In this document: piece after piece, positions 3,187 to 61,389 of the stretch
Layout of the letters: each line of letters begins with the position of its first letter
How positions within the stretch are numbered: position 1 is the first letter of the stretch
Assembly (NCBI GenBank): GCA_001779195.1
Contig: MFJL01000041.1
Span: 16,881-80,880, forward strand
Origin: Candidatus Gottesmanbacteria bacterium RIFCSPHIGHO2_02_FULL_39_11
GTDB lineage: Bacteria > Patescibacteriota > Microgenomatia > 2-02-FULL-39-11
DNA: 64,000 nt
Direction of reading: 5' to 3'
Made by a program: the position numbers and the translations under genes
The notes under the pieces: generated by a model
What the model was told of the DNA's origin: nothing
The model's input: only the letters and a program-made list of their open reading frames with translations
Databases searched by the model: none

Positions 3187-3768
3187 ATGAAATCGACAAA
3201 ACTAATTCTGCTTAGACATGGACAAGTACATAATCCGAAAAGTATTTTATATGGAAGACTTCCCGGGTTTGGTTTATCTGCTAAAGGCCGCGAAGATGTA
3301 CTGAAAGCATACGAAAAATTGAAGAACGAATCTATTGACACAATTTTTATGAGTCCTCTTCTTCGTACCCGCCAGACAGCCAGTATTTTTGCTAAAAATT
3401 TGGGACTTGCGGTCCATACTGATAAAAGACTTATTGAAGTCAAATTATATTGTGAAGGAGTAAGTTTAACTGAGTTTAAATCTGATTTACAGCCTGATTT
3501 ATACTCGGAAGAAAACTATAAAAAAGGACAGGAAAGTGTAGAAGAAATCTCACAGCGCATGAACAGATTCCTATCTTTTATTAAAGAAAAATACCCCGGA
3601 AAAACGGTTCTTGCTGTTTCTCACGGGGATCCGATTATCATTCTCGAGTCTCAAGTTTTAAAGACTCCTTTTACCTGGGAATTTAAAAGAGACAACTATG
3701 TAAATACTGCCTACTATCGTATAATTGAAACAGGAAGGCATGATAAAAAATGGCACGTACGCATCTAG
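3187..3768 (+). CDS. histidine phosphatase family protein (phosphoglycerate mutase-like branch)
   Basis: LLRHGQ catalytic motif near the N-terminus, then RTRQTA and SHGDP. Confidence 0.75.
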   Translation: MKSTKLILLRHGQVHNPKSILYGRLPGFGLSAKGREDVLKAYEKLKNESIDTIFMSPLLRTRQTASIFAKNLGLAVHTDKRLIEVKLYCEGVSLTEFKSDLQPDLYSEENYKKGQESVEEISQRMNRFLSFIKEKYPGKTVLAVSHGDPIIILESQVLKTPFTWEFKRDNYVNTAYYRIIETGRHDKKWHVRI

Positions 3769-4394
3769 CAAAGTCTGTACTTTTTTTTCTAATTTTTCTT
3801 TTTTTAAGCTTTATTACCACCTGGGGAATTTTTGACCGGTTTGACTATTTCTCAATGATTTTTTTACAAAGGATAATTCCGCCGCTTTTTGATATTCCGT
3901 TTGCTCTTTTATCCTTCAGCGGATCAACTGAGATAACGGCTCTTCTTCTTCTGGTATTTTCTTATATTTTTTTCGCAAAGAGAAAAAAAATTCCATTCGG
4001 AATTATTCTTTTTGCCCTGATATTTTTAATTGAGGTAGCCGGAAAGATATTTATTTTCCAGGAACCACCTCCTATCTATCTTCAGAAAAAAGTGATTCCC
4101 TTTATCTTTCCAAGCAGCTCTTTTGTCTTTACACCTTTTTCCTACCCTTCCGGACACATGGCACGGATATGCTTTCTTGCAACTCTTTATTTGACTTACG
4201 CAGTGAAATTTATCCGTGAAAAAAAGAAAATGAAAATTATTTTAGTAGTCGGTATATTCTACCTTTTTATTATGACTGTCAGCCGGATTTATCTGGGGGC
4301 GCACTGGTTTTCGGATGTTTTGGGAGGTGCGATACTGGGCATTTCTTTGGGACTTCTGGCAAATGACCTAATATATGAAAAAAACATCGGATAA
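3750..4394 (+). CDS. PAP2 (type 2 phosphatidic acid / undecaprenyl-PP) phosphatase family membrane protein
   Basis: PSGH and SRIYLGAHWFSDV motifs. Multiple TM helices. Overlaps both neighbours. Confidence 0.75.
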   Translation: MARTHLAKSVLFFLIFLFLSFITTWGIFDRFDYFSMIFLQRIIPPLFDIPFALLSFSGSTEITALLLLVFSYIFFAKRKKIPFGIILFALIFLIEVAGKIFIFQEPPPIYLQKKVIPFIFPSSSFVFTPFSYPSGHMARICFLATLYLTYAVKFIREKKKMKIILVVGIFYLFIMTVSRIYLGAHWFSDVLGGAILGISLGLLANDLIYEKNIG

Positions 4395-5073
4395 ATTCAA
4401 CAATTGTATTAACTCATACCTATACATGGATATTTTGGGAGTTAGTATTAACTGCCCCTACTGGGCAAATCGGATGGAAAATGGAGTTGTAACCGTCCGG
4501 GGGTTTGAAGAGGGAAAAGGGGAGGCGAGTACTATTCAAAATGAAATAATGCGACTTGCAAGCGGGAGTAAAAAAGATAAACCTGAAGGAAAATTGGATT
4601 TTGAAAATATTACTTTTTTGGCAAGAAAAAACAGAATAGGAATTGACTGCTCAGGACTTATTTTCCGTATTATGGAGGCGGTTCTTGAAAAAAAAGATAT
4701 GGACATGATATTTCCTTTAGGAATCAGGAAAACGAATGCGGATATGCTTACCCGTAATTTATATTCACAAAAGATTGACTCTATAAAAGAAATCGCTGTT
4801 GGCGATCTTATACGGCTTAGTTCAGGACATCATGCAGTAATTATTACTCACATAGAAGGTGAGACCGTTAAGTATGTACATTCGTCCTCCCGTACGCAAA
4901 TATCAGGAGTACATACGGGAGAAATGGTTATTAATAAAGGAAGTGAAACAATTGAAAGCCAGGTATGGAAGGAAAAAACTTTTCGGGGCCAGAACTGGAA
5001 GGATAAATATTTTCACGGAGAAGAAGATGGAGTATACCGGAATAAATTCTTATACACTGCCTTAAACCCATGA
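4375..5073 (+). CDS. NlpC/P60-like papain-fold hydrolase. Start uncertain; ATG candidates at 4426 and 4471.
   Basis: Cys in IDCSGLI. His in GDLIRLSSGHHAVII, followed by KYVHSS as a likely third residue. Spacing is typical of NlpC/P60. Confidence 0.5.
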   Translation: MKKTSDKFNNCINSYLYMDILGVSINCPYWANRMENGVVTVRGFEEGKGEASTIQNEIMRLASGSKKDKPEGKLDFENITFLARKNRIGIDCSGLIFRIMEAVLEKKDMDMIFPLGIRKTNADMLTRNLYSQKIDSIKEIAVGDLIRLSSGHHAVIITHIEGETVKYVHSSSRTQISGVHTGEMVINKGSETIESQVWKEKTFRGQNWKDKYFHGEEDGVYRNKFLYTALNP

Positions 5074-6464
5074 TGAAAAAACCTTTTTCACTTGCCGAAT
5101 TTAGGAATAAATCCGTTCATATTGTAGGAGTCACCGGGTCTGAAGGAAGTGCAATCCTGAGATTATTAACACAGGAAAAGTTTAAAAATATTACGGTACA
5201 TGATTACAGTCCTTTGGAATATTCGGAGAGAAGCTTTAAAGTGTGGCACAAGGGTATACCATTGCGTGATCGGAATAACGCATTTAAAATATTTGCACAA
5301 GATATAAAAACAGTTAACAAAAACTTTGGAAATGATTATTTAAAGGAAATTGAATCCGGTGATATTATTTTTGCTCCTCAGTCGTGGAGACTGTATAAAA
5401 GGCAAAATGTCCCGTTGTTAGAAGCACATCAAAAAGGGATTCTATTTTGTTCATTAACTTCCCTGTATCTGGATTTGTCACCTGCAAAAGTTATTGCCGT
5501 TTGCGGAACCGTAGGCAAGGGAAGCGTATCCCACCTAATTTATGATGTTTTAAAAGGAAGTGGCAAGTCTGTGTACTATGGAGGAAATGACACGTGGAAT
5601 ATACAGTCTCTTGAGAATATTACTTCCCTTAGCAGAGAAGATTATTTAGTTCTTGAAGTTTCTCACCGGCAGCTTCAGGAAGGACTACAGAAGGGTCCCT
5701 TTATCGGCGTTCTTACCAATATTTATCCGAATCATTTGGATGAAACAGGCTTGGAGGAATACAAAAAACTGAAATATTCACTTTTTACCTCTCAACTATC
5801 TTCTGATTTTGCCGTACTCAACAATGACTATAAAGATATAAGTGATCTGGCAAAAGAAATAAAATCACAAGCAGTTTTTTTCAGCACTAAGGATTTAAAA
5901 TTGAACACAAAATATGTTCAAATTATTTATGATTATTTTATGAGGAATAAAAGTAATCATTTAATTGAAAATATAATAGCGACAGGCGCAGTACTTGAGT
6001 TATTGAACATTTCTGTTGAACAGACAATTAAAGAAATTTCCAGCTCAAAATCATTACAGGCAAGAATGCAAAAAATTGCAGAAAATGGAGAGATTGAATG
6101 GTATGACGATGTCAAAAGCACAACCCCGTGGGCAACACTAGCGCTTATTAATAAATTGGGTAATAATCTTATCCTTATTATGGGGGGGAAAACTAAGGGT
6201 ATTGATTACAAAGATGCACTAAAAGAAATACAGAAAAGAGTTTTAAAATTAATTATTTTAGAAAGCGAGTTAAGGAGCGAAGCTTCAAAGTATTTAATGC
6301 CGGGAAGCTACATGATTGCCGGTACGTTAAAAGATGCATTAGCCCTATCTTATAAAGAAGCAAAAAAGGGAACAAAAATTGCCGTATCTCCCGGAGCTGC
6401 TTTTTTTTATACCGATTTTATAAAAGGTAAAAGTTCAATAAGACAGATCTTATATAACTTGTAA
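5070..6464 (+). CDS. Mur ligase family protein, MurD-like
   Basis: N-terminal Rossmann-like VHIVGVTGSEGSA. P-loop VIAVCGTVGKGSV. C-terminal domain with DDVKSTTPWAT...IMGGKTKG, resembling MurD NDSKATN...GG. It is not in a cell-wall synthesis gene context, so it may be a paralog with a different substrate. Confidence 0.55.
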   Translation: MMKKPFSLAEFRNKSVHIVGVTGSEGSAILRLLTQEKFKNITVHDYSPLEYSERSFKVWHKGIPLRDRNNAFKIFAQDIKTVNKNFGNDYLKEIESGDIIFAPQSWRLYKRQNVPLLEAHQKGILFCSLTSLYLDLSPAKVIAVCGTVGKGSVSHLIYDVLKGSGKSVYYGGNDTWNIQSLENITSLSREDYLVLEVSHRQLQEGLQKGPFIGVLTNIYPNHLDETGLEEYKKLKYSLFTSQLSSDFAVLNNDYKDISDLAKEIKSQAVFFSTKDLKLNTKYVQIIYDYFMRNKSNHLIENIIATGAVLELLNISVEQTIKEISSSKSLQARMQKIAENGEIEWYDDVKSTTPWATLALINKLGNNLILIMGGKTKGIDYKDALKEIQKRVLKLIILESELRSEASKYLMPGSYMIAGTLKDALALSYKEAKKGTKIAVSPGAAFFYTDFIKGKSSIRQILYNL

Positions 6465-6475
6465 AGGACCGTCCC

Positions 6476-6664
6476 TTACTTTTCTTCTTCAATCGGGGTG
6501 ATGGTGAGAGGATCTAAATCTACAACTTCTGATTCACTGGCACATTTCTGACACTCATAAATTGTCCCAACTTTAATGGGATTTTGGATAACCATAGAGG
6601 AATTACACATCGGACATGCGATAATGATTGCGCTGGTAGAGTTTTTTTGAATATCGGCGATCAT
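6476..6664 (-). CDS. LysW/ArgW-like amino-group carrier protein (zinc-ribbon with an acidic tail)
   Basis: CPMC...ECQKC zinc ribbon. ESEVVDLDPLTITPIEEEK aligns with Thermus LysW (CPECG...CEDCG...ELEVVGLDPL...EEAEDWGE). The tail ends in EEEK rather than a terminal Glu. Confidence 0.6.
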   Translation of the reverse strand: MIADIQKNSTSAIIIACPMCNSSMVIQNPIKVGTIYECQKCASESEVVDLDPLTITPIEEEK

Positions 6665-6692
6665 AGGGTAAAATTAAACCACATTTCTATCT

Positions 6693-7541
6693 ATGAAGCA
6701 ACATAACATTACTATCGGTAATACTCAACTTGCAAATATTGAATCTGTCTATTTCAAATGCGAGTTTGAAAATCCGACCGGATCGGTAAAAGACAGATCC
6801 ATAATAAATCAGGTATTAAATGCTAAAAAGAGAGGATTTAAACTAGCCGTAATTTCCTCATCCGGAAATGCGGCAATTTCAGCCTCTAACTATTGTAAGG
6901 AAGCAAATATCAATTTAACCGCATTTGTTTCGTATCACATAAACTTGGGCAAACTTGAGAAACTTAAAGAATCAGGGACAGACATTATTCAAAGCCAAAA
7001 ACCCATAAGTGATGCGGCATCATTTTCTTTAAAAAATAATGCATATAATCTCAGACAGTCCCTTGATTCTGAGGCAGTATCAGGATATCAAAATATTTCT
7101 TATGAACTTTTAAAACAAATCCCAAATGCAGATGCCATCTTTATTCCGGTAAGTAGCGGGACAATGTTTGTAGGAATTGCCCGGGGATATATGGGATATG
7201 AAGGGCCAGCGTTACATGCGACGCAGACAGAAGCAGTTCACCCCATTTCTCAACAGTTCGATCGTGAGTTTTCTCCCAGTTCTGAAAGTATTGCTGATGG
7301 AATTGTTGCAAAAGTTACCACACGTGAGAGTGAAGTAATTGATCTTATTGAAAAGTCTGACGGGTTTGGATGGGTTATTGGGGATGATCAAATAAAAAAA
7401 GCACACCAGTATTTAAGAGCTTATGGTATTAGAACTTCCTACGAAGGTGCGATGGCTTTAGCAGCAGTTTGGAAAGCAAAAGAAAAAGGATATAGGTATA
7501 AAAGTCCGGTATGCATATTATCAGGAAGTTTTTATGGATAA
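6693..7541 (+). CDS. PLP-dependent fold-type II enzyme (ThrC/CysK/TrpB-like)
   Basis: FENPTGSVKDR, the PLP-lysine motif of the tryptophan-synthase-beta superfamily. Glycine-rich SSSGNAA loop. Short at 282 aa. Confidence 0.65.
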   Translation: MKQHNITIGNTQLANIESVYFKCEFENPTGSVKDRSIINQVLNAKKRGFKLAVISSSGNAAISASNYCKEANINLTAFVSYHINLGKLEKLKESGTDIIQSQKPISDAASFSLKNNAYNLRQSLDSEAVSGYQNISYELLKQIPNADAIFIPVSSGTMFVGIARGYMGYEGPALHATQTEAVHPISQQFDREFSPSSESIADGIVAKVTTRESEVIDLIEKSDGFGWVIGDDQIKKAHQYLRAYGIRTSYEGAMALAAVWKAKEKGYRYKSPVCILSGSFYG

Positions 7542-8854
7542 TGAATTTAATGAATAACAAAACATATATCCAATACCTTTTTAAAGATGATGATTTTTTT
7601 TATGTTACAACAGATGTAAAACGTGCATTAGGGCTTGAAGACATACTCCCTAATTTTCACGTTATTACATCTGTTTATGATCCTCTTATTCCGCTTCTTC
7701 GGAATAAAAATATACACGTTTTTTGTTTGGAAGAAGAAGTTGAAAAAGAGAATATGTCGGTTAAAAGTGCAAGGCAACTTTTTTTCCATCCTAAAGCCCA
7801 AAATTATATTCATAACCAGTCCAGTCGACCTAATATTCTTACTTTTAAGCCGGTTGAAGGAATGGGGGAAGAAAAGGGAGAGGATGGATATGAGTATATA
7901 GGAAACGGAAGAGAGCTTAATGAACAGTTTGAGGACAAGATAAACTTTTACCAGATATTAAAAGACAATTTTAAAGAGAATATGGTTCCCTCTATTATTG
8001 GACAGCTTGCAGAACTGACATACGGTAATATTAGAGATCAGTTAGGAGAGTCTCTCGTTATCCAATTCGGAAAAGGGTGGGCAGGAAATACCAGTTTCGA
8101 TGTAGAAAATGAAAGTGATTTTGAAAATTTGAAAAAAAGGTTTCCTCAAACGCATGTTCGAGTGAGCAAAAGAATTAACGGTAATACATTTTTGAATAAT
8201 TGCTGTATTTATAAAAATACAATATTTCACAGTTCTCCTGCAATTCAGATAAACGGAATTTCATGGCTAAATAAAAATCCTTTGGCAACTTCAGGAAGAG
8301 AATGGGGAAATAAGTTTTTAAGTTCAAAAGAGACAGAAGAAATAAGATTTCTTACCGAAAAAATGGGAAGGCTGCTTATTAAATCCACATACCGGGGATA
8401 CTTTGGACTGGATTTTATTGTGGATTCTGTAACCGGAAAGGTATACGTCTCAGAAATAAATGCACGCTTTACCGCTTCTTGCCCTTTCTATACAAAACTG
8501 GAATTAGGGAGTGAGATTCTGCCGTTATACGTCTATCATTTAGCTGAGTTTTTAGGAAAAGACATTAAAAAAGAATACAGAAGGTATGAGGGCATTGAGG
8601 GATGTGAGGTAAATGGAGAGTTAGACAAAATGTCAAATTTAAGAGTTGGAACATATAAAATAGAAGATGACGGGACATTTGATTTTGAAAATGACTCTTA
8701 TGATCCAGCAAAAATATTAAAAGACGAGGTAGTCTTAATTACAGACCCAAAAAATTCAGTGAAGATCCAAACTAATTATCCACTCCTTGCAAGTCCAGGG
8801 AAATTTCAGGAAAAGTTTGAGAAAATCATCAAAAAGGAGATTATAACGGGATAA
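7541..8854 (+). CDS. ATP-grasp ligase (LysX/RimK-like C-terminal domain with an N-terminal extension of about 170 aa)
   Basis: YRGYFGLDFIVDSVTGKVYVSEINARFTAS ATP-grasp motif. The start codon overlaps the upstream stop as TAATG. The ORF track start at 7511 would overlap the PLP gene by 31 nt. Confidence 0.65.
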   Translation: MNLMNNKTYIQYLFKDDDFFYVTTDVKRALGLEDILPNFHVITSVYDPLIPLLRNKNIHVFCLEEEVEKENMSVKSARQLFFHPKAQNYIHNQSSRPNILTFKPVEGMGEEKGEDGYEYIGNGRELNEQFEDKINFYQILKDNFKENMVPSIIGQLAELTYGNIRDQLGESLVIQFGKGWAGNTSFDVENESDFENLKKRFPQTHVRVSKRINGNTFLNNCCIYKNTIFHSSPAIQINGISWLNKNPLATSGREWGNKFLSSKETEEIRFLTEKMGRLLIKSTYRGYFGLDFIVDSVTGKVYVSEINARFTASCPFYTKLELGSEILPLYVYHLAEFLGKDIKKEYRRYEGIEGCEVNGELDKMSNLRVGTYKIEDDGTFDFENDSYDPAKILKDEVVLITDPKNSVKIQTNYPLLASPGKFQEKFEKIIKKEIITG

Positions 8855-19070: not shown

Positions 19071-19187
19071 GTGGGAGGAGAATAAAAAAATCATTCTTCG
19101 ATTATAAGAGGACGTAAGAATTTGTATTTCCTCATTAAATAATTCGAAAACAAATTCTAACGAAAGGAGGTGAAAATAATTAAATAT

Positions 19188-20387
19188 ATGAAAAAATTCG
19201 CAACAATAGTTGGAACTGCTGCTCTTTTTGGAGCCGCAATGCTTCCAGCTTTAGCAACAGGTAATAACTGTTCAAACGATACCACCGGTCCTTTCTCAAA
19301 CAACACATGTACAGTAAACAACACAAGTAATGTGCAAGTGAGTAACTACAATGACGCTAAAATAACAAATGATGTTGAATCAAACGTCAATACCGGGCAC
19401 AATAGCGCAAGCTATAACACTCTCGGAGGTGATATCGTCACAGGAAACGCTACTTCTAATACCGTCGTATCAACCGTTGCCAATATTAATACTACTAACG
19501 TAGTAGGTGGTGCAGCAGCAGGTCCAAACACCGGCTCAAACCACATTACTGGTCCCGGTTCTATATGGGGAGGAAGTGACGGAAACAATGCAGTATATAT
19601 CAACAATGACCAAAACGTTAACGTTGATAATCAAAACACCGCCGTCGTTTATAACGACGTCGATGCATCTTCCAACACTGGATATAACAGAGCTAAAGCT
19701 AACACTGGTCCTGCATTTATCAAAAGCGGTAATGGAGTACTCGGCGTAACCGTCGGGACCCACGTCAATGATAACTGGACACAGGTTACAACTGGAGCTG
19801 GTTCAACTGGAGGAAATACAGCAGGAAACAGTATCACCGGACCTTTCTCAGACAATATCGTCACATTAAATAACAGCAGCGATATCAGTGTAAGAAATTA
19901 CAATGATATGTTCGTTAAAAATGATGTTGACGCAAGTGTTGAGACCGGAGATAACAAAGCTTCTTACAACACTCTCGGAGGCGACATCGTCACCGGGGGC
20001 GCACGTGGGATAGTTGGAGTAAATACAGAAGGAAATATAAATACTACTTCTGTACAACAAGCTCTAGGAGGATTTGCCAACAACGGCAATAACTCAACCA
20101 CCGGACCTGGATCAGAAAATAATACCTATGTTAACAACGATCAGATCATAAGTGTAGACAACGCAAATAATAAGTGTTGGTCTCATAATGCTGACAGTAT
20201 TAATTGGGGTAGAAATTGCTATCCGTGGGATCTAGGGGTCGAAAATTTTGTTGACGCATCTTCCGAAACCGGAGACAATCGAGCCAACGGTAATACCGCT
20301 GGTGGATTTGTCAACGCAACTTTGGCAGATTTGTGGCAGAGTGTCGTGACTCATATCAACGATACTATGACTACAGTCACACAGTAA
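19188..20387 (+). CDS. secreted Asn/Thr/Gly-rich repeat protein (paralog family A)
   Basis: The track start 19170 is a GTG inside the Shine-Dalgarno sequence; the real ATG is at 19188. Signal peptide. Repeats TGHNSASYNTLGGDIVTGNATSN and ETGDNKASYNTLGGDIVTGGARG. Conserved leader. Confidence 0.7.
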   Translation: MKKFATIVGTAALFGAAMLPALATGNNCSNDTTGPFSNNTCTVNNTSNVQVSNYNDAKITNDVESNVNTGHNSASYNTLGGDIVTGNATSNTVVSTVANINTTNVVGGAAAGPNTGSNHITGPGSIWGGSDGNNAVYINNDQNVNVDNQNTAVVYNDVDASSNTGYNRAKANTGPAFIKSGNGVLGVTVGTHVNDNWTQVTTGAGSTGGNTAGNSITGPFSDNIVTLNNSSDISVRNYNDMFVKNDVDASVETGDNKASYNTLGGDIVTGGARGIVGVNTEGNINTTSVQQALGGFANNGNNSTTGPGSENNTYVNNDQIISVDNANNKCWSHNADSINWGRNCYPWDLGVENFVDASSETGDNRANGNTAGGFVNATLADLWQSVVTHINDTMTTVTQ

Positions 20388-20479
20388 CCGTTTTCTTTCT
20401 TGGCAGGCCCCGACTATCAAGTCGAGGGCCTCCAAGAAGGAACGAGATTAACAAAAGCTCAAAGCTAAAAGTTTAAAAA

Positions 20480-22846
20480 ATGACGACAAAATCACCCATA
20501 AATAAATTACACAGACTTATTAGCAGTTTTCTTATTGCTATTCTTCTTTTTGAAAGAATGTTTTCTTTTACTACCCTTTCTGCATATGCGGATGATCCCT
20601 CACCGACAAGTGCTCCTCAAGAACAGAATGCTCCGCCTCCGCCTCCGTCAGTACCGACAGCTCCTCCTCCGGCTCCTACTGTGCCTCCGGTAGATGCAGT
20701 ACCCACCGTTCCTCCTCCGGGCGGATCAGATGAACCTCCTTCCAATCAGTCTCCTCCGGTTCCAACATCAGCACCTACTGGTGAGGCCCAACCGACTATT
20801 TCTCCTAATGATCCGGTTCCGACTATTGTACCGGTAGGATATGTATCTCCGACGGGTAATCCTACTACTACTACATCGAGCGGAGCCTTGGCGGATTCAA
20901 TGGCAACGGGCGATGCGCAAGAAGGGAACGGAAGTACCTACTCGAAAGACGAATCCGTAAACGATCCAGCCAATACCAATACCGGTGCTTTTTCACAAAA
21001 TCAGGCAACAGAAGATCTAAATAAAAATTTAGAACAGGTTTCTAAAAACCTGGCAGATCTTAATAATAAAATTAATCAGTTATCCAATACCGGATTTAAT
21101 GTAGCAACCCTTAATACATTATCCGGAAATGTTTTTACGGGAGATGCCAATGCCTCAACAAATCTTTTTAACAAACTAAACAGCAATGTCACGGGTGAGG
21201 GAGGATTTGTCACTCAAAATATATACGGAAATCAGAGCGGGGACATCGTATTTCAACTAGCTGAGAGTAGTGCAACTGGAACATTTGACAGTGTCAGTCC
21301 AACAGTTACCAAAAATGCAACAACGGGAGCGGAATCTGACAATACTGCTACAACTAGCAACGGATTTACCGTCAAAGAAGCAAACGGAAATGACGCAACG
21401 ATAAATAATGATATAACTTTAAATGCCATTTCCGGAGAAAATAAAGCAGTATTAAATACCGGAAACGGTGTTGTAAAAACAGGAGATGCAAATGCACTCG
21501 CAAATATAATTAACCTTGCCAACACCAATCTGAATGTAGCAGAGTGGCTTTTCGGAGTAATTAATATTTATGGCACCCTAACCGGGAATATTATACTTCC
21601 CGATGGAACATCTGTTCTTGCCTCATCAATTACATCAAATTCACCTGTTTCAACCACAAGTAATTCACAAACCGGAGCCGGATCTGACAACACAGCTGTC
21701 TACCAAACTTCAGATACGTCCGAATTTAAAAACGTAAATACGGCAACGGTGGCAACCAATGTTGATGTAACCTCCAATACCGGAAATAACGCCAGTAACG
21801 GAAATACAAGTGGAGGAAGTGTAACCACCGGGGATGCAAATTCAGATGTAAACAGTACAACTGTTGCCAATACAAATGTAGATGATCCTGAGGGAACCGT
21901 ATGGATTGTCATGGTAAACGAGTTGGGGAAATGGATAGGAAAAATTATCGGAGCGCCATCTGAGGCTACCACGGCATCAAGTCTTCCCGCAACTATAACA
22001 ACTGGAGGAGAAGGACAGGCAACATATACCGACAGCACAACTAATTCACAAACCGGTGCAGGGTCATCAAATGACGCGCAAAATTCACAAAGTGCTAAAG
22101 AGACAACAGAGAACACAAACACTGCAGATATTAAGAATAACATAACCGTAAATGCAGATTCCGGAAACAATGCCGCAAACTACAATACCGGGGCAGGAAT
22201 AGTTGAAACCGGGGATGCAAATGCGGGAGTAAATATATTAAATCTTTCAAACCTTAACGTAAAAGCCAAGAAAGTAGTGGTGTTATTTATAAACGTCTTG
22301 GGAGATTTTATAGGAAACGTGGTAACTCCCGGACAGCCGAATGAACACGTAATAGCTGATAATTCTCAGCCGCAGACTACACCTACTCCTGATACAAGGA
22401 TTGGGGGTGCTGTATCTTCTGATCCGACACCAACTCCCACTGATGAGGTTGCAGTAAATTATGTTATTAACCAAACTGTTGTGAATATAAATCCGGTACA
22501 GACGGTTGTCAGTTACCTTACAAACAGCACGGATCAAACCGGAGAAGAGGCGTATGGAAATTCAGGCAGGATATTTACATATGCAACGGACGCTATCTAC
22601 TTTGCTGAGGTAAACCCGAATATTATTCCTACCAAGTCGCCACTTCGGGGCGTGTATCTTTCCCCTTCTTTTCTGAAAGCAACCGAGTCCACCCTCCCTG
22701 GTATGCTTCTGGGGGGAGTGTCTCTGAAAGTAAATGAACGATGGCTTTCTGTACTTCCGGTTGCAGTACTCTTGGTTATCTTAAGACGCAGACGAAAAAT
22801 CGACTTTTCAAAATATCTAAACATGCTTTTTGACATTGTACTGTAA
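20480..22846 (+). CDS. large secreted surface protein: Pro-rich N-terminal region plus the family-A repeat domain, C-terminal hydrophobic segment and RRRRK tail
   Basis: Signal peptide. PPPPSVPTAPPPAPTVPP region. Repeats NTGNGVVKTGDANALANIINLANTNLNV recurring about four times. C-terminal LPVAVLLVILRRRRK. Confidence 0.7.
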   Translation: MTTKSPINKLHRLISSFLIAILLFERMFSFTTLSAYADDPSPTSAPQEQNAPPPPPSVPTAPPPAPTVPPVDAVPTVPPPGGSDEPPSNQSPPVPTSAPTGEAQPTISPNDPVPTIVPVGYVSPTGNPTTTTSSGALADSMATGDAQEGNGSTYSKDESVNDPANTNTGAFSQNQATEDLNKNLEQVSKNLADLNNKINQLSNTGFNVATLNTLSGNVFTGDANASTNLFNKLNSNVTGEGGFVTQNIYGNQSGDIVFQLAESSATGTFDSVSPTVTKNATTGAESDNTATTSNGFTVKEANGNDATINNDITLNAISGENKAVLNTGNGVVKTGDANALANIINLANTNLNVAEWLFGVINIYGTLTGNIILPDGTSVLASSITSNSPVSTTSNSQTGAGSDNTAVYQTSDTSEFKNVNTATVATNVDVTSNTGNNASNGNTSGGSVTTGDANSDVNSTTVANTNVDDPEGTVWIVMVNELGKWIGKIIGAPSEATTASSLPATITTGGEGQATYTDSTTNSQTGAGSSNDAQNSQSAKETTENTNTADIKNNITVNADSGNNAANYNTGAGIVETGDANAGVNILNLSNLNVKAKKVVVLFINVLGDFIGNVVTPGQPNEHVIADNSQPQTTPTPDTRIGGAVSSDPTPTPTDEVAVNYVINQTVVNINPVQTVVSYLTNSTDQTGEEAYGNSGRIFTYATDAIYFAEVNPNIIPTKSPLRGVYLSPSFLKATESTLPGMLLGGVSLKVNERWLSVLPVAVLLVILRRRRKIDFSKYLNMLFDIVL

Positions 22847-22901: not shown

Positions 22902-23381
22902 ATGAAAAAAATAATTGCAGTTCTATCTGCATTCTTTTTATTTTTCTTCTTCTGGGGACTTTTTACTCAAACTGTGTCACAAACAGAAGCTGACTGGTGG
23001 GTGCGTCCGACTGAACGGGAAGCACAGCCCACACGTGAGCCGCGGGTTAGTTTGGCACCCCGGACTCCCAGTCCTACTGATTCTCCTACACCCAAGCCTA
23101 CAGGCAGTTCTCCGTCCGACCAGAATCCCTGTGCGCCGGGACAATCATTTACCGGTACCAACTGCGGATGGTCACCGGGAATTTCTGAATACAAACATGA
23201 TCCGGAAGGAAGCAGTAGCCAGGCAGTCGGATATGGAATCGGAGGACCGGATGTACTAGGACTTTCCTATACGGGAAGCGTGAGTTCAAATAAGATTAGC
23301 AGTTCTGATGTAATCTTTCTCTTAGGAGTTCTATGTCTACTCGTATACACAAAGTCAAAACTCAGGGCAAAGATAAGGTAA
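22902..23381 (+). CDS. small secreted Pro-rich protein with a C-terminal sortase-type sorting signal (LSYTG + hydrophobic + basic tail)
   Basis: Signal peptide. C-terminal GLSYTGSVSSNKISSSDVIFLLGVLCLLVYTKSKLRAKIR. Overlaps the sortase gene start. Confidence 0.55.
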   Translation: MKKIIAVLSAFFLFFFFWGLFTQTVSQTEADWWVRPTEREAQPTREPRVSLAPRTPSPTDSPTPKPTGSSPSDQNPCAPGQSFTGTNCGWSPGISEYKHDPEGSSSQAVGYGIGGPDVLGLSYTGSVSSNKISSSDVIFLLGVLCLLVYTKSKLRAKIR

Positions 23382-23971
23382 AAAAAGCCCGCCTGACCTT
23401 TTTAATTATAGGAATTGTACTTCTTGTTCTGGGATTTTTGATACAAAATAGTTCTTTTATTTTTTCAAAACCTCGCGCCATCGTAGCCAAGTCAAATGGT
23501 TATACGCCTCTCTTATCCTATAATCCGGTCAAAATAGACCCTCTTTTTATCCAGTCTCAGACTTTGCCAAAGTTAATTCGGGATATTCCTACAAAAATTA
23601 TTATTCCCTCAGTTGGGATTGATGTAGGAGTTAAAAAAGCAAAAATTATAAACGGTTACTGGGAAGTTTTTGAAGATACTGCCGGATGGGGAGAAGGATC
23701 AGCTGCACCCGATGAAGCAGGAAACGTTGTAATGTTTGCTCACGCACGGGAAGGGTTATTTTTACCCCTTAGAAACGTAAAATCAGGGCAAAAAGTTTAT
23801 ATTCTGACTGGTAATATATTTTATACGTATGAAATTAAAGAGGTTCAGGAAGTAAATCCGACAGATACGGAGGTTATTAAACCGACACAAGATGCAATTT
23901 TAACCCTGTATACTTGTTCGGGATTTGCAGACAGCAAAAGGCTTATCGTAAAGGCAAAAAAGATTATCTGA
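23333..23971 (+). CDS. sortase family transpeptidase
   Basis: N-terminal TM anchor. His in MFAHAREG. Catalytic Cys in the LTLYTCSG motif (TLxTC). Confidence 0.75.
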   Translation: MSTRIHKVKTQGKDKVKKARLTFLIIGIVLLVLGFLIQNSSFIFSKPRAIVAKSNGYTPLLSYNPVKIDPLFIQSQTLPKLIRDIPTKIIIPSVGIDVGVKKAKIINGYWEVFEDTAGWGEGSAAPDEAGNVVMFAHAREGLFLPLRNVKSGQKVYILTGNIFYTYEIKEVQEVNPTDTEVIKPTQDAILTLYTCSGFADSKRLIVKAKKII

Positions 23972-24189: not shown

Positions 24190-25068
24190 ATGAACCGGTT
24201 TATTTTTCCTATCCAGCATTATTTTTTTCCGCATCATTCAAACAACTACAAGGCAAAATCGCTCCATCTTTCTTCTTTGCTTTTTTATGTCGCTTTGCTT
24301 CTTCTGGTACAGTTTACTGTCAAAACATTTAGAAAAGATTATCCTGAGATTTTGGGATACGCAAAAGATGTAAATATTAACAGGATATTAACCCTCGTTA
24401 ATCAAAAGAGACAGGAGGCGGGACTTTCTCCCCTTGCTCTCTCACCGCTTCTAACAACATCAGCAACCAATAAGGGGAATGATATGTTTGGCAATAATTA
24501 CTGGGCTCATATATCTCCCTCCGGCAAAACTCCGTGGGAGTTTATAAGGGAGACAGGATATGATTATGACTATGCCGGGGAGAATTTAGCTAAAAGCTTT
24601 GATAGTTCAGATCAGGTGGTTGATGCCTGGATGAATTCTCCGACACATCGGACAAATCTACTTAAACCTGAGTATACCGAGATGGGACTTGCTGTTATCA
24701 ACGGCAAGCTTCTGGGTGAGGAGACAACTCTTGTAGTTCAGGAATTCGGAACACGAACTTTATCTGATACCGTTGCCCAAATTACACCTGAGGCGATTGT
24801 GCCTACACAAGCGGTTGCAGTTGTCCTGCCTCCGAACAGCTTCTCCGCAACGACCATTAATACGGTTCCAAAAGTTGTCGTCTATACTCCTCTTAAGTCA
24901 ATCTCCATCCTCACAGCCGAGTTTCTCCTAGTCGTTCTTTTCTTAGACGGGATTTATATGTGGAAATTTAAGCCTCATAGGCTTTCTTCACGGACTCTTG
25001 CCCATATTATATTTATAGGTGCTTTAATTGGTGCAATGGGAGCAACCGGAATAGGAGCCATACTATGA
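24190..25068 (+). CDS. CAP/SCP/PR1-like domain protein (YkwD-like) with C-terminal TM segments
   Basis: HISPSGKTPWEF, GENLAKSF and VVDAWMNSPTHRTNLLKPEYTEMGLAV are typical CAP-domain blocks. Confidence 0.7.
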   Translation: MNRFIFPIQHYFFPHHSNNYKAKSLHLSSLLFYVALLLLVQFTVKTFRKDYPEILGYAKDVNINRILTLVNQKRQEAGLSPLALSPLLTTSATNKGNDMFGNNYWAHISPSGKTPWEFIRETGYDYDYAGENLAKSFDSSDQVVDAWMNSPTHRTNLLKPEYTEMGLAVINGKLLGEETTLVVQEFGTRTLSDTVAQITPEAIVPTQAVAVVLPPNSFSATTINTVPKVVVYTPLKSISILTAEFLLVVLFLDGIYMWKFKPHRLSSRTLAHIIFIGALIGAMGATGIGAIL

Positions 25069-58302: not shown

Positions 58303-59319
58303 ATGAAAAACTCACAGCCTCAATCTCAAATAATTATCTATAAAGCAGAAACTGGCGAGACTAAAATCGACGTGCGTTTTGATGGGGACACGGTCTGGTT
58401 GAGTCAGGATGAAATGGCTCGATTGTTTGACAAAGGCCGTTCAACTATTGCAGAACATATTGCTAAAGTATTTAAGGAAAAAGAACTAGTCGAGGGATCA
58501 GTATGTCGGGAATTCCGACGTACTGGCGCTGATGAAAAAGAATATCAGGTAAAATATTACAATCTCGATGTTATTATCTCCGTTGGTTACCGAGTCAAGT
58601 CACTCCGTGGTACTCAATTTCGTATTTGGGCAACCAAGCGTCTGCGCGAATATATCGTCAAAGGTTTTGTGATGGATGATGAGAGACTGAAAAACCCCGA
58701 TCTGCCGTTTGATTATTTTGAAGAACTCACTCGTCGTATTGCTGATATCCGCACTTCAGAAAAAAGATTTTATAGAAAAATTACAGACATCTATGCTACC
58801 AGTGTCGATTATGACCCGACAGACAAACAGAGTATTCTCTTTTTCAAAACGGTCCAAAACAAAATGCATTATGCAATTACCGGAAGTACTGCGGCGGAGA
58901 TAGTAGCCAGTAGAGTGGATAGTAAAAAACCAAATGTGGGACTGACAAACTTCAGGGGTAATAAACCAACAAAAGAAGAAGTAGTGATCGCCAAAAATTA
59001 TTTGAGTGAACAAGAGCTTCTTGTTTTAAATAATCTTGTCGAGCAATATCTCGTATTTGCGCAAGGACAGGCCATACAAAGAGTGCCAATGTATATGAAA
59101 GACTGGATTGGTAAACTCCATGCATTTTTACAGATTAATAATAAAGATATTTTGAAAGATGCAGGAAGAATCTCTCACGAGTTGGCTACAGAAATAGCCG
59201 AAAGGAATTTTGATGAATACAAGAGAAATGAAGTAAAAAAATTAGATAATAATTTTGATTTGGCTGCTTTACACGCGCTTGAAATTGCAAAGAAAAAGAA
59301 AGGGGAGGATAAAAAATGA
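58303..59319 (+). CDS. RhuM family virulence/defense-island protein
   Basis: IIYKAETGETKIDVRFDGDTVWLSQDEMARLFDKGRSTIAEHI ... YNLDVIISVGYRVKSLRGTQFRIWATKRLREYIVKGF, a strong match to the RhuM family core. Confidence 0.8.
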   Translation: MKNSQPQSQIIIYKAETGETKIDVRFDGDTVWLSQDEMARLFDKGRSTIAEHIAKVFKEKELVEGSVCREFRRTGADEKEYQVKYYNLDVIISVGYRVKSLRGTQFRIWATKRLREYIVKGFVMDDERLKNPDLPFDYFEELTRRIADIRTSEKRFYRKITDIYATSVDYDPTDKQSILFFKTVQNKMHYAITGSTAAEIVASRVDSKKPNVGLTNFRGNKPTKEEVVIAKNYLSEQELLVLNNLVEQYLVFAQGQAIQRVPMYMKDWIGKLHAFLQINNKDILKDAGRISHELATEIAERNFDEYKRNEVKKLDNNFDLAALHALEIAKKKKGEDKK

Positions 59320-59381
59320 CTATGCAATTTTAAAAAATGCAAAATTACTTCATGGAAATAGGCCTGTCAAGAAAACTCTTC

Positions 59382-59528
59382 TGTCATCCTGAAATCGTCT
59401 ACCCTGAGTCTTATCGAAGGGTTTCAGGATCTTCTTTTTGTCATTCTAGCTTGTCCAGAATCTGTGTTGTTTCCATGTCATCCTGAATTTGCTTGTACTG
59501 AGCTTGTCGAACGTATCCAGAATCTGTC
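59382..59528. repeat. cluster of three imperfect palindromic GTCATYCTGA...CCAGAATCTG elements
   Basis: TGTCATCCTGAAA...TTTCAGGATC, then TTTGTCATTCTAGCTTGTCCAGAATCTG, then TGTCATCCTGAATTTG...TCCAGAATCTG. Confidence 0.5.
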
Positions 59529-59615
59529 TTTCCTTTTTCTTTCTCTCTTCTTTTGCTTTCCTCCTCTAAACCTCTAAACCTTTCTCCATAAAGAAAAATT
59601 GAATACGTATCGGAA

Positions 59616-59658
59616 TTTCTTGTGAATAAGCAGTATAATCCACGTATACAAGTTAGGA
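59616..59658 (+). repeat. direct repeat copy 2 (GAATTTCTTGTGAATAAGCAGTATAATCCACGTATA), about 60 nt upstream of hsdM. Probable promoter region.
   Basis: See copy 1. The TATAAT hexamer is retained. Confidence 0.55.
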
Positions 59659-59721
59659 GCCTTCAACCAATTAAGAAGATAAAACAAACAAATTAGTATT
59701 TTGCTGACTTATAATAAATAT

Positions 59722-61299
59722 ATGAATACACACAGTAGTCAACTTCAGGAACAATTGTGGGCAGCAGCTGAGCACATGCGTGCAAATAGCAGTCTAAAGC
59801 TGAACGAAATCTCAGAGCCAATTTTAGGTCTTATTTTTCTCAAATTTGCTGATGTATGTTTTCAAAGAGCTACAAAAGAGCTAGAAAAAGATAGATTATC
59901 CATAAAATCTTCAAGACAAAGACCTCTTATTTCAGATGACTATAAAGCAATGGGAGTTATTTATATTCCGAAAGAAGCATCATACTCATATCTTATTAGT
60001 CTCCCGGAAAATGAAAATCTAGGAAAAACAATAAACGGTGCCATGAAAACAATTGAGGAAGAAAATCGTGAGCTTGCTGGAGTATTACCCCAAGATTATA
60101 CCAATATTTCTAGGAAAGCTGATGAAAATAACCGAATACTTATATCGCTACTAAAAAGCTTTAATCAAATTCCTGATGATATTGAAGGGGACTCTTTTGG
60201 TGAAATATATGAATACTTTCTGGGGAATTTCGCTCTTTCTGAAGGAAGAAATGGAGGAGAATTCTTTACAGCACAATCAATAGTAAAGCTTTTAGTTGAA
60301 ATTATTGAACCCTATCATGGAAGGATTTATGATCCTGCTTGCGGAAGCGGGGGCATGTTTGTACATTCTGCTCATTTTGTGGCTGAACATATAAAAAATA
60401 AATCTCATGTGATGGACGAAGTGGCAATCTATGGACAAGAGAAAACAGACTCTACCGTCAAAATTGCCAAAATGAATCTCTCAATTCATGGACTTTCAGG
60501 AAAAATTATCCAAGCAAACTCATTTTACGAAGATGTATATGAAAGTGTCGGAAAATTTGATTTTGTGCTTGCAAACCCTCCTTTTAATGTAAAAGGGAAA
60601 GATAAAAGAGGACAATTGGTCATAGATCCCGCTCGACTTCATGGGGATCCCAGGTATTATTTCGGTCTTCCTCTTACAGGTAAAAAAGAGATAAGTAATG
60701 CTAATTATCTCTGGATTCAGATCTTTACCAGCGCATTGTCATCAAAAGGGCGTGCCGGATTTGTTATGGCTAATTCTGCAACGGATGCAGGTAATGCGGA
60801 AAAGGGAATTAGGGAAAAACTAATTGAAGAGGGAATTGTGGATGTTATTATCTCAACTCCTCCCAATATGTTTCTTAACGTTACTCTTTCATCAACGTTA
60901 TGGTTTTTAGATAAAGGTAAAAAAAGCACGGATAGACAAAATAAAATTTTGTTTATTAACTCCCAAGATATTTTTACTCCTGTTGATCGCGCACACAATA
61001 GATGGACGGATGAACAAATCCAAGAAATCGCTGGAATTGTTCGGCGATATCGAAGTGAAGAAGGAAACGAAAAATATAAAGATATAAAAGGCAGGTGCAA
61101 AGTTGCAACTCTTGATGAAATTAAGGCCAATGATTATTCGCTAAATCCTGGAAGATATATAGAAATAGTTGAAAAAGAAATGGATGATGTGGAGTTTGAA
61201 GCAAGAATGAAAGAATTAACTGAAGAATTCAGAACTCTAACCAAAGAAGCTCACGAGCTTGAAAAGAAAATAGAGGAAGATTGGGAGAAAATTATATGA
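59722..61299 (+). CDS. hsdM: type I restriction-modification system DNA methyltransferase subunit M
   Basis: Motif I IYDPACGSGGMF. Motif IV LANPPFNVKG. N-terminal HsdM_N-like helical domain. The track start 59701 is a TTG; ATG is at 59722. Confidence 0.9.
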   Translation: MNTHSSQLQEQLWAAAEHMRANSSLKLNEISEPILGLIFLKFADVCFQRATKELEKDRLSIKSSRQRPLISDDYKAMGVIYIPKEASYSYLISLPENENLGKTINGAMKTIEEENRELAGVLPQDYTNISRKADENNRILISLLKSFNQIPDDIEGDSFGEIYEYFLGNFALSEGRNGGEFFTAQSIVKLLVEIIEPYHGRIYDPACGSGGMFVHSAHFVAEHIKNKSHVMDEVAIYGQEKTDSTVKIAKMNLSIHGLSGKIIQANSFYEDVYESVGKFDFVLANPPFNVKGKDKRGQLVIDPARLHGDPRYYFGLPLTGKKEISNANYLWIQIFTSALSSKGRAGFVMANSATDAGNAEKGIREKLIEEGIVDVIISTPPNMFLNVTLSSTLWFLDKGKKSTDRQNKILFINSQDIFTPVDRAHNRWTDEQIQEIAGIVRRYRSEEGNEKYKDIKGRCKVATLDEIKANDYSLNPGRYIEIVEKEMDDVEFEARMKELTEEFRTLTKEAHELEKKIEEDWEKII

Positions 61300-61328
61300 A
61301 AAAGTAGTCGGATAAGGTGAATTGTTTA

Positions 61329-61358
61329 TTGACTTTTTATTCTGTTATAGTGTAATAT
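61329..61358 (+). promoter_or_regulatory. sigma-70-like promoter candidate for the ATPase gene (TTGACT, 18 nt spacer, TAATAT)
   Basis: Hexamers read directly from the sequence. Ends about 30 nt upstream of the 61390 start. Confidence 0.3.
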
Positions 61359-61389
61359 ATGTGCATGATCATTATTTTAGCCTTATTAC

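Follow-up and report, generated by a model that had tools for sequence, protein, structure and literature searches.

We describe here a group of three adjacent genes found in a 64,000-nucleotide stretch of DNA (the window) from Candidatus Gottesmanbacteria bacterium RIFCSPHIGHO2_02_FULL_39_11 (contig MFJL01000041.1, positions 16,881 to 80,880). The genes encode a small LysW-like zinc-ribbon protein, which we refer to as the carrier, a pyridoxal 5'-phosphate (PLP)-dependent enzyme and an ATP-grasp ligase. A preliminary description of the window had interpreted them as a minimal, non-canonical carrier-protein system whose ligase was LysX/RimK-like and bore an N-terminal extension. The first part of that interpretation stands, whereas the part concerning the ligase and its extension does not. 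The position of the module in the division and cell wall (dcw) gene cluster where murD is expected, its MurD-like neighbor, the NlpC/P60 amidase and the invariance of the terminal lysine across the carrier family all lay outside that description.

The carrier gene occupies positions 6476 to 6664 on the minus strand, encodes 62 residues and ends with a TAA stop codon. A 28-bp intergenic spacer (6665 to 6692) separates it from the divergent gene of the PLP enzyme (6693 to 7541, plus strand, 282 residues), which is followed on the same strand by the gene of the ATP-grasp ligase (open reading frame [ORF] 7511/7541). Because a database protein 100% identical to the ligase is 437 residues long, we place its start at 7541 and its gene at 7541 to 8854. 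The TAA stop codon of the PLP gene (7539–7541) and the ATG start codon of the ligase gene (7541–7543) overlap as TAATG, an arrangement by which the ligase gene is predicted to be translationally coupled to the PLP gene. The three ORFs, the divergent spacer and the overlap had all been reported before, and all are present on direct reading.

Two further plus-strand genes lie on the other side of the carrier gene. One encodes a probable NlpC/P60-type cysteine amidase (4375 to 5073), with an ORF of 232 residues and a database protein of 215 residues that begins at 4426. The other encodes a MurD-like Mur ligase of 464 residues (5070 to 6464), situated between the amidase and carrier genes. It carries Mur_ligase_M and Mur_ligase_C domains and scores 169.8 bits against the TIGR01087 murD model (cutoff 211.95); the next best Mur model reaches 67 bits.

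The carrier, the PLP enzyme and the ATP-grasp ligase

The carrier (MIADIQKNSTSAIIIACPMCNSS...ECQKCASESEVVDLDPLTITPIEEEK, with the C-terminus ...LTITPIEEEK) contains two CxxC pairs, C17/C20 and C38/C41, and passes the gathering score of the Zn_ribbon_LysW family (PF21344; 35.9 bits against 27), a family to which relatives are assigned as well. It also matches the solved LysW proteins of T. thermophilus (PDB 3wwl, E 1.2e-7) and T. kodakarensis (PDB 5k2m, E 6.5e-6). The alignment begins at the first CxxC and continues to where the tail starts, stopping about six residues short of the end of the 3wwl LysW; the canonical ...EDWGE end is therefore missing in the carrier. A LysW-type zinc ribbon with a non-canonical tail, as originally proposed, is what the profiles and structures recover. 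The carrier falls short of the cutoffs of both the LysW equivalog TIGR01206 (30.2 bits against 53.2) and the LysW/ArgW equivalog NF041070 (19.1 bits against 75), and by these profile scores we classify it as something other than a LysW equivalog.

A word-indexed homology search with the 62-residue carrier found only the carrier itself, and the family was recovered by an exhaustive search of 1.84 billion representatives. This search yielded 50 proteins at E<=1e-3, many of them in further clusters of proteins ending in E-E-K; one distant match (P0085) is a canonical LysW ending in ...GEDWGE. We assembled a family sample of 78 distinct relatives from the fetched loci described below. The terminal residue is Lys in 77 of the 78, with the tail ending in E-[E/Q/T/D]-K, and the Glu at position -3 is invariant in all 77 Lys-ending relatives. 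Position -2 is Glu in 72 of these 77, the rest having Q, T or D. Only L, I or V occur at position -5, and a Pro at -11 is found in 76/77. The tail extends 21 residues past the second CxxC in 75/78 relatives, and the mean net charge of the family is -7. The single natural variant of the tail is EEKG, at locus L034. Taken together, these features argue that the carrier family forms a distinct subfamily within the LysW fold, coherent and marked by a new motif at its terminus. An artefact of stop codons or of the genetic code was ruled out as the cause of the short tail, given that the terminal Lys of the relatives precedes TAA, TAG and TGA alike.

Related LysW-like proteins of other kinds were also encountered. 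A separate set (P0058–P0062, P0064, P0067, P0068, P0071–P0076 and others) combines two or three ribbons of the LysW type with long poly-acidic tails, which have ends such as ...EDW, ...DWE or ...DDD, and represents another uncharacterised branch of the fold. At locus L095, a distant variant of the carrier (8001–8312) has two tandem LysW-like ribbons and the end IEEEK, beside genes for a PLP enzyme, an ATP-grasp ligase, FtsW and MurG. Here a gene of 98 residues and unknown function separates the carrier from the PLP enzyme, and the ligase was located by tblastn (5247–6434, minus strand), where the source annotation has small ORFs only.

The PLP enzyme matches PF00291 with 154.7 bits (E 4e-45, threshold 35), in keeping with its first assignment as a ThrC/CysK-like enzyme of fold type II. 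Its PLP lysine is K33, within GSVKDR. Among 38–80 relatives, K33 in S-V-K-D-R, the loop S55-S56-x-G58-N59 and S155-G156 are conserved in at least 90%, and K22, E24, K33, D34, R35, G58, N59, K87, S123, E138 and S249 are invariant in the family. When PDB entries were ranked with a profile of 38 family members, threonine synthase (ThrC) came first (E 8e-28), followed by serine dehydratase (1e-24), threonine dehydratase (5e-22), serine racemase (8e-22), aspartate racemase (3e-20) and CysK/SbnA (about 1e-17). This ranking suggests a fold-type II enzyme that stands between threonine synthase and the serine dehydratases and racemases.

A true threonine synthase was ruled out, with the curated cutoffs missed and a key arginine gone. 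The best NCBIfam ThrC model reaches 127 bits against a cutoff of 358, and TIGR00260 reaches 51 against 167. The ThrC block N-S-x-N-P-x-R-x-E-G-Q-K-T reads Q-S-L-D-S-E-A-V-S-G-Y-Q-N in the window enzyme, and the Arg of N-P-x-R, which we take from ThrC structures to be the phosphate-binding residue, is replaced and is not conserved in the family; a different arginine, R121, is conserved. The residue before G58 is usually Ser, as is also found in serine dehydratase and CysK.

The Asn loop of the fold (S-S-S-G-N), which in these enzymes binds the free α-carboxylate of the substrate, is retained. The substrate would therefore have a free α-carboxylate and a free α-amine, and any carrier-bound substrate would have to be tethered through its side chain; this tether is something we infer from the general mechanism of the fold. 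The β-replacement on the carrier by an SbnA/CysK-like enzyme, which had been suggested in the preliminary description, is possible but is not favored by the ranking of ThrC over serine dehydratase, the racemases and, last, CysK/SbnA.

For the ATP-grasp ligase, we collected a family of 27 homologues with 30–55% identity. They share K103, E131, K133, Q175, D291, the motif E305-x-N307-x-R309 and a T-C-G-R-x-W motif. The AlphaFold model of the ligase has a pLDDT of 91.2, and a Foldseek search with it returned 602 PDB matches at E<=1e-3, the top 50 of which are all ATP-grasp enzymes. About 430 columns of the model superpose on PurK, biotin carboxylase and the biotin carboxylase domains of pyruvate carboxylase, with a template modeling (TM) score of about 0.6 and 8–15% identity. 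The model therefore depicts an ordinary three-domain enzyme, in which the N-terminal 170 residues, formerly described as an extension, would be the A and B domains.

Profile searches characterize the ligase further. All 27 members match PRK06524 (‘biotin carboxylase’, NF005096), with a best E-value of 3e-35 and about 99 bits against a cutoff of 684. Matches are also obtained to the models for the Ddl-like ATP-grasp enzyme of pseudomurein biosynthesis (12/27 members), the large subunit of carbamoyl-phosphate synthetase (11/27), the MfnD tyramine-Glu ligase (8/27), the LdmS Asp-Met ligase (5/27) and BesA (4/27). The accC and purK models give weak E-values in just one to three members. The top entries of the PDB profile search are BesA and an ‘ATP-grasp peptide ligase’. 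The relationship to LysX and RimK asserted at the outset was not recovered: the RimK family model (TIGR00768) matches two of the 27 members at E 0.004, no RimK Pfam match was found, and the PDB profile search contained no LysX, ArgX or RimK chain at E<=1. These matches point to a ligase of the amino-acid or amine type that probably forms a family of its own.

Two other identities were considered for the ligase and set aside. A carboxylase of the biotin carboxylase/PurK type was rejected, as the cutoff is missed and the likeness is one of overall architecture; replacement of Ddl was ruled out, a normal Ddl being present in several of the same clusters. A homologue of 458 residues also occurs alone, without the carrier and PLP genes, on a 295-kb contig (L040:5956–7332). 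It is flanked on one side by a RadC-like gene and on the other by a large ORF resembling phosphoenolpyruvate-utilizing enzymes.

Gene order across Microgenomates

We scanned one genome per GTDB species, obtained 128 confirmed matches and fetched the best 80 loci, which were analyzed by scripts over about 13–21 kb of sequence per locus. The titles of the fetched records include Gottesman-, Roizman-, Shapiro- and Woese- names as well as Microgenomates or Patescibacteria. The module is found in at least 128 species-level genomes from a radiation of ultra-small, uncultivated bacteria. The PLP gene is present in 77/80 loci and the carrier gene in 73/80, on the opposite strand in all 73. The reversed carrier gene, the PLP gene and the ATP-grasp gene are contiguous in 72 of the 80 species-representative loci, and most of the eight loci without a contiguous trio are cut by contig ends. 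Such grouping is far beyond chance, and the conservation of the trio that had been looked for in related genomes of the Candidate Phyla Radiation (CPR) is clearly seen. The order of the module is kept across deeply divergent lineages at 30–40% protein identity.

Two arrangements are seen. In loci of the Shapiro/Woese type, the genes for MurE, a transferase-like protein, MurC-like, MurA, (MurF) and MraY precede the module, which consists of the NlpC/P60 amidase, the reversed carrier gene, the PLP enzyme and the ligase, and FtsW, MurG, FtsQ, FtsA and FtsZ follow. Of the 55 loci in which both mraY and ftsW are present, 54 have the module exactly between the two, in the canonical slot of murD. NCBIfam typing of the Mur ligases in these clusters gives MurE, MurC-like and MurF, and never MurD, and no counterpart of the MurD-like protein of the window was found in the Shapiro/Woese-type loci, including the 55 with MraY and FtsW. 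The cluster at L010, for example, has MurA, MraY, MurF, Ddl, MurE, MurC-like and the module, and no MurD.

In the Gottesman-type arrangement, which includes the window, the order is histidine phosphatase, PAP2, the module with the MurD-like ligase inserted between the NlpC/P60 amidase and the reversed carrier gene, RF2, FtsE, FtsX and a PcsB-like protein. The run from the amidase through the MurD-like ligase, carrier and PLP enzyme to the ATP-grasp ligase is observed in 12 loci. In this lineage, the module appears to have left the dcw cluster together with the MurD-like ligase. The MurD-like and carrier genes are convergent, with 11 bp between their stop codons in the window (6462–6478). In relatives they overlap by about 30 nt (L001:6967–6998), without space for a terminator between them.

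The amidase adjoins the trio in 62/80 loci and is a frequent partner, although not an obligatory one. It has a β-rich N-terminal domain of about 70 residues, its structure is DL-endopeptidase-like, its Cys/His pair is intact and it has no signal peptide. Its best Foldseek match is the amidase of glutathionylspermidine synthetase/amidase, a remote one with a TM score of about 0.3. We predict that it is cytoplasmic and is likely the release enzyme of the module. Paralogues of the amidase exist elsewhere: an Amesbacteria contig (L098:7001–8487) has two in tandem, beside an Asn-synthase-like gene, an α/β hydrolase and a MurF-like fragment, and another contig (L099:2469–3215) has a single relative, with the trio absent.

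Two features of the Shapiro/Woese-type clusters bear on the structure of the stem peptide. The MurE proteins carry the motif DDTR (...DDTRNE...) or EDPR (...EDPRTE...) where E. coli MurE has DNPR (read from L006:1594–2925, L008:1609–2934 and L010:15776–17083). The Arg of this motif, presumably the signature of MurE enzymes of the diaminopimelate (DAP) type, is kept, which hints at a DAP-like residue with a distal carboxylate at stem position 3. A gene of about 200 residues lies between MurE and MurC-like (L006:2922–3548, L010:17086–17754 and about 20 other loci). It shows a weak likeness to arginyl/leucyl-tRNA protein transferases (PRK01305, E 2e-8 to 1e-4, far below the cutoff) and could encode an aminoacyl-tRNA-dependent transferase acting on a wall precursor. 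The MurT/GatD amidation system was ruled out for this gene on the strength of that resemblance.

A possible role in peptidoglycan-precursor synthesis

LysW-type carriers are known from the synthesis of lysine, ornithine and arginine (PMC12998189). The substrate of canonical LysW is loaded by its α-amino group, and a solved complex shows its attachment to the C-terminal Glu (PMC12998189). The module resembles the pathways with an amino-group carrier protein (AmCP) found in Thermus, Sulfolobus, Thermococcus and haloarchaea, which use LysW or ArgW, in its small acidic Cys4 zinc ribbon with a flexible acidic C-terminal tail, in having an ATP-grasp partner and an available hydrolase, and in its presumed logic of attachment, modification and release. 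It differs in its E-E-K tail, where the solved LysW proteins end in Glu (E53 or E54; PMC12998189), and in a ligase from outside the LysX/RimK family. A fold-type II PLP enzyme stands as the modifier, the putative release enzyme is a cysteine amidase rather than an M20 metallohydrolase, and the genomic context is the dcw cluster rather than amino-acid biosynthesis. The carrier belongs to the AmCP fold, while the chemistry at its terminus, the family of its ligase, the enzymes for modification and release and the biological setting are different.

No genes of the LysZ, LysY, LysJ or LysK type (kinase, reductase, aminotransferase and M20 deacylase) were found among the annotated genes within 10 kb on either side. 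Domains of these types were also not found among the scanned ORFs of the window (all those beyond 17.2 kb with at least 150 residues, together with three shorter ORFs at 9.9–14.3 kb) or in the annotated loci of relatives. The module is not a canonical lysine or arginine pathway, as had already been concluded.

To our knowledge, all known LysW-type carriers end in Glu and are served by LysX-type ligases. A few natural products of actinomycetes also use such carriers. In the secondary metabolism of Streptomyces, non-proteinogenic amino acids are bound to a Glu-terminated carrier and processed by enzymes of the LysX, LysZ, LysY and LysJ types, encoded in natural-product clusters of large genomes. 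The module is similar in that a LysW-type carrier has been recruited beyond lysine and arginine, whereas it lies in reduced genomes, within their core cluster for wall and division. CysO-CysM of Mycobacterium, which makes cysteine, offers another parallel, in which the C-terminus of a small carrier works together with a dedicated hydrolase and a PLP enzyme of fold type II. CysO is ubiquitin-like and is activated by adenylation at a GG-thiocarboxylate, whereas the module would activate by ATP-grasp chemistry. The glutathionylspermidine synthetase/amidase of E. coli reverses the amide bond made by an ATP-dependent ligase; it is a single bifunctional protein that works on small molecules, with no carrier and no PLP step.

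Within the searchable literature, we found no paper naming LysW together with CPR, Patescibacteria or Microgenomates, none linking LysW, peptidoglycan and ATP-grasp, and none joining amino-group carrier protein and threonine synthase. The combination of CPR, MurD and glutamate racemase, and that of Microgenomates, peptidoglycan and murD, also returned no paper. Where the relatives' proteins have a source name, it is ‘hypothetical protein’, except for one truncated UniRef name starting with ‘Nl’. What is new here is a LysW fold with an E-x-K tail whose partners are a PLP enzyme and a ligase from a different ATP-grasp family, in the most conserved cluster of bacterial cell biology.

From its sequence and setting, the module appears to be a step in the building of the cell wall that relies on a carrier and has not been described before. 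Our preferred reading, which we put forward tentatively and at less than even odds, is that it is a LysW-type carrier module of peptidoglycan-precursor synthesis whose most probable task would be to deliver D-glutamate for the MurD step. It is similarly possible, though far from assured, that most Microgenomates make, and perhaps install, the D-glutamate of position 2 on a carrier, replacing glutamate racemase and possibly also MurD. The possible replacement of MurD is confined to those lineages that have no murD in their dcw cluster. Peptidoglycan D-Glu at stem position 2 is otherwise supplied by the MurI or MurD2/MurL routes, which involve neither a carrier nor PLP. The genomic position of the module points to that same step, which the module would accomplish with unrelated proteins.

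In the proposed cycle, the ATP-grasp ligase would form an acyl phosphate at the γ-carboxylate of free L-Glu and link this carboxylate to the ε-amino group of the invariant C-terminal Lys, a polarity that is the reverse of that of LysX. The tethered Glu would keep its α-amino group and α-carboxylate free, and the PLP enzyme could therefore form an external aldimine with it and invert Cα from L to D. The NlpC/P60 amidase would then cleave only the D-form and release D-Glu for MurD; with this selectivity, the ATP-driven cycle would run in one direction. Gamma-D-glutamyl amides are the typical substrates of the NlpC/P60 family. MfnD and BesA acylate an amine with free L-Glu through its activated γ-carboxylate, the same γ-glutamyl polarity that we propose for the module. 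Their acceptors (tyramine for MfnD, propargylglycine for BesA) are small molecules rather than a protein Lys, and the matches of the ligase family to them are weak (E 1e-4 to 5e-5, in a minority of members) and lie mostly in the C-terminal catalytic core.

The D-glutamate reading would make sense of five observations: a terminal Lys that does not vary, the tolerance of the EEKG variant, the requirement for a free α-amino acid, the family of the amidase and the linkage to murD. The EEKG variant itself argues weakly against the α-carboxylate of the Lys as the site of ligation. Serine and aspartate racemases are close relatives of the PLP enzyme (in the range of E 1e-20). The 64-kb window yielded no Asp/Glu-racemase or alanine-racemase domain; as it is a small part of the genome, this is weak evidence.

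Several points weigh against this reading. A route to D-Glu that takes four proteins and consumes ATP is more elaborate than the widespread MurI racemase. The profiles nearest to the PLP enzyme are those of ThrC and serine dehydratase rather than of racemases, and the Ser before G-N is also found in non-racemases and hence is not diagnostic. The amidase is not beside the trio in at least seven complete loci and has paralogues without the trio in the two contigs mentioned above; it may thus process muropeptides independently of the module. In one genome the ATP-grasp homologue occurs by itself. The reading also presumes the substrate, the residue of attachment (the Lys ε-NH2, the γ-COOH of Glu(-3) or the terminal carboxylate) and the reaction type of the PLP enzyme.

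Four other explanations have to be weighed against delivery of D-glutamate. The module might instead keep the polarity of LysW, with the ligase loading the α-amino group of a small amino acid (for example Cys, homocysteine, Ser or Dap) on the γ-carboxylate of Glu(-3) or on the C-terminus. The PLP enzyme, using activated Ser or homoserine, would then build a second α-amino-acid center by β- or γ-replacement, and NlpC/P60 would cleave the γ-glutamyl amide to give a DAP-like diamino-dicarboxylate (lanthionine- or cystathionine-like) for MurE. We regard this as unlikely, though it has several facts on its side. Glu(-3) varies no more than the terminal Lys does. The PLP enzyme has its nearest relative in ThrC, which catalyzes γ-elimination/replacement, and is related to CysK/SbnA, and the DAP-type Arg kept in DDTR/EDPR suggests a MurE substrate with a distal carboxylate. 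In Fusobacterium, the lanthionine of the wall is made by a fold-II PLP enzyme. Loading by the α-amino group on a C-terminal Glu is also what canonical LysW does (PMC12998189), and CPR bacteria are generally reported to be without amino-acid biosynthesis (PMC7143001). However, the module sits in the murD slot or beside a MurD-like gene and not beside MurE, the invariance of the terminal Lys is left unexplained, the phosphate-binding Arg of ThrC is absent and no gene supplying activated Ser or homoserine is seen nearby. It is distinctly unlikely, in our view, that the module replaces MurD (together with MurI) outright in most Microgenomates. The ligase would then add glutamate to UDP-N-acetylmuramoyl-L-alanine, with the PLP enzyme supplying D-Glu and the LysW-like protein acting not as a covalent carrier but as an adaptor or a chaperone of the substrate. 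The absence of any MurD-type ligase from the 55 dcw loci with MraY and FtsW, where MurC-like, MurE and MurF are seen, speaks for such a replacement, as does the otherwise well-stocked L010 cluster, and 12/27 ligase members match the pseudomurein model. ATP-grasp enzymes and Mur ligases, furthermore, share the same acyl-phosphate chemistry. Yet a MurD-like ligase coexists with the full module in Gottesmanbacteria, the window included, MurD could be encoded elsewhere in the other genomes, and neither the strictly conserved tail nor the amidase is given a role.

The remaining two explanations seem to us improbable. In one, the tail ...Glu-Lys-COOH mimics the end of a stem tripeptide (D-isoglutamate-L-Lys) and the module is a donor of side branches: the ligase would put Asp or Glu on the Lys ε-amine, the PLP enzyme would invert that residue, and NlpC/P60, as a thioester transpeptidase, would pass the D-residue to a wall precursor. 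The enterococcal D-aspartate ligase, which acts likewise on the precursor, is the model for this scheme, and the pairing of a racemase-like PLP enzyme with an ATP-grasp enzyme recalls the racemase/ligase pair that makes D-isoaspartate cross-bridges. A Glu does precede the invariant Lys, NlpC/P60 enzymes form acyl-enzyme intermediates, and the transferase-like gene between MurE and MurC makes branched stems plausible. The MurE motif, however, has the DAP-type Arg and not the Lys-type one, the amidase is not always present, and we know of no precedent for a protein-borne donor of cross-bridge residues. The other explanation, to which we attach an equally slim chance, takes the module out of wall building altogether. 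The small protein would be a substrate or scaffold of post-translational modification, such as a graspetide-like lactam between Glu(-3) and Lys(-1) or a metabolite scaffold peptide, and its place in the dcw cluster would be history inherited within one phylum-level lineage. ATP-grasp enzymes do make Lys-Glu lactams in graspetides, and pathways based on scaffold peptides exist; all our examples come from Microgenomates, where conserved order could partly reflect vertical inheritance, and one ATP-grasp homologue stands alone elsewhere. Graspetide systems have a leader/core precursor with repeated Thr/Ser/Lys plus Asp/Glu motifs, a ligase family of their own and often a transporter or protease, whereas the small protein folds as a zinc ribbon and has one E-x-K. 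The order has also been kept despite protein identities of 30–40% and through the rearrangement that moved the module with the MurD-like gene, a lactam would leave the PLP enzyme idle, and the loci contain no transporter, protease or immunity genes of the type associated with peptides that are made on the ribosome and modified after translation (RiPPs). Small CPR genomes are, in addition, presumably less likely to carry dispensable secondary metabolism.

Should the module supply or install a wall amino acid, it would provide a missing piece in the picture of peptidoglycan building by genome-reduced CPR bacteria. It would also introduce a new polarity to carrier-protein biochemistry, with an amine-bearing carrier and side-chain tethering, and a fold-II PLP enzyme that acts on a protein-bound amino acid. 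On the D-glutamate reading, the carrier would be the first amino-group carrier protein to work through the amine of a Lys where others use a Glu carboxylate. It would also be the first in core cell-wall synthesis.

Other features of the window and of related loci

Two genes precede the amidase on the plus strand of the window, one for a member of the histidine phosphatase family (3187 to 3768) and one for a PAP2 phosphatase (3750 to 4394). The coordinates of the histidine phosphatase, PAP2 and NlpC/P60 genes overlap, which suggests that they form a single operon. The run of histidine phosphatase, PAP2, NlpC/P60 and MurD-like genes is kept in Gottesman-type loci only.

Further along, at 19170–22846, are two large ORFs of 405 and 788 residues with no Pfam match at E<=1e-4. 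They are followed by genes for a sortase (23333–23971) and a CAP-domain protein (24190–25068), and are possibly sortase-anchored surface proteins. The region from 25439 to 56440 is devoted to envelope glycans. It includes genes for an RmlA-like nucleotidyltransferase, 4,6-dehydratases/epimerases, an RmlD-like reductase, a UDP-glucose dehydrogenase, many GT2 and GT4 glycosyltransferases, PMT_2/PTPS-related membrane proteins, a Wzx-like flippase and YfhO. A patch that looks like defense or mobile DNA lies at 58303–62862, with a RhuM-family gene, the HsdM methylase of a type I restriction-modification system and an AAA_14/DUF4143 ATPase.

Many of the GTDB records with the typical Microgenomates dcw order (L018, L020, L022, L023 and others) are labeled ‘uncultured Gammaproteobacteria bacterium’, and one is labeled ‘Clostridia bacterium’. 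These are almost certainly mislabeled submissions.

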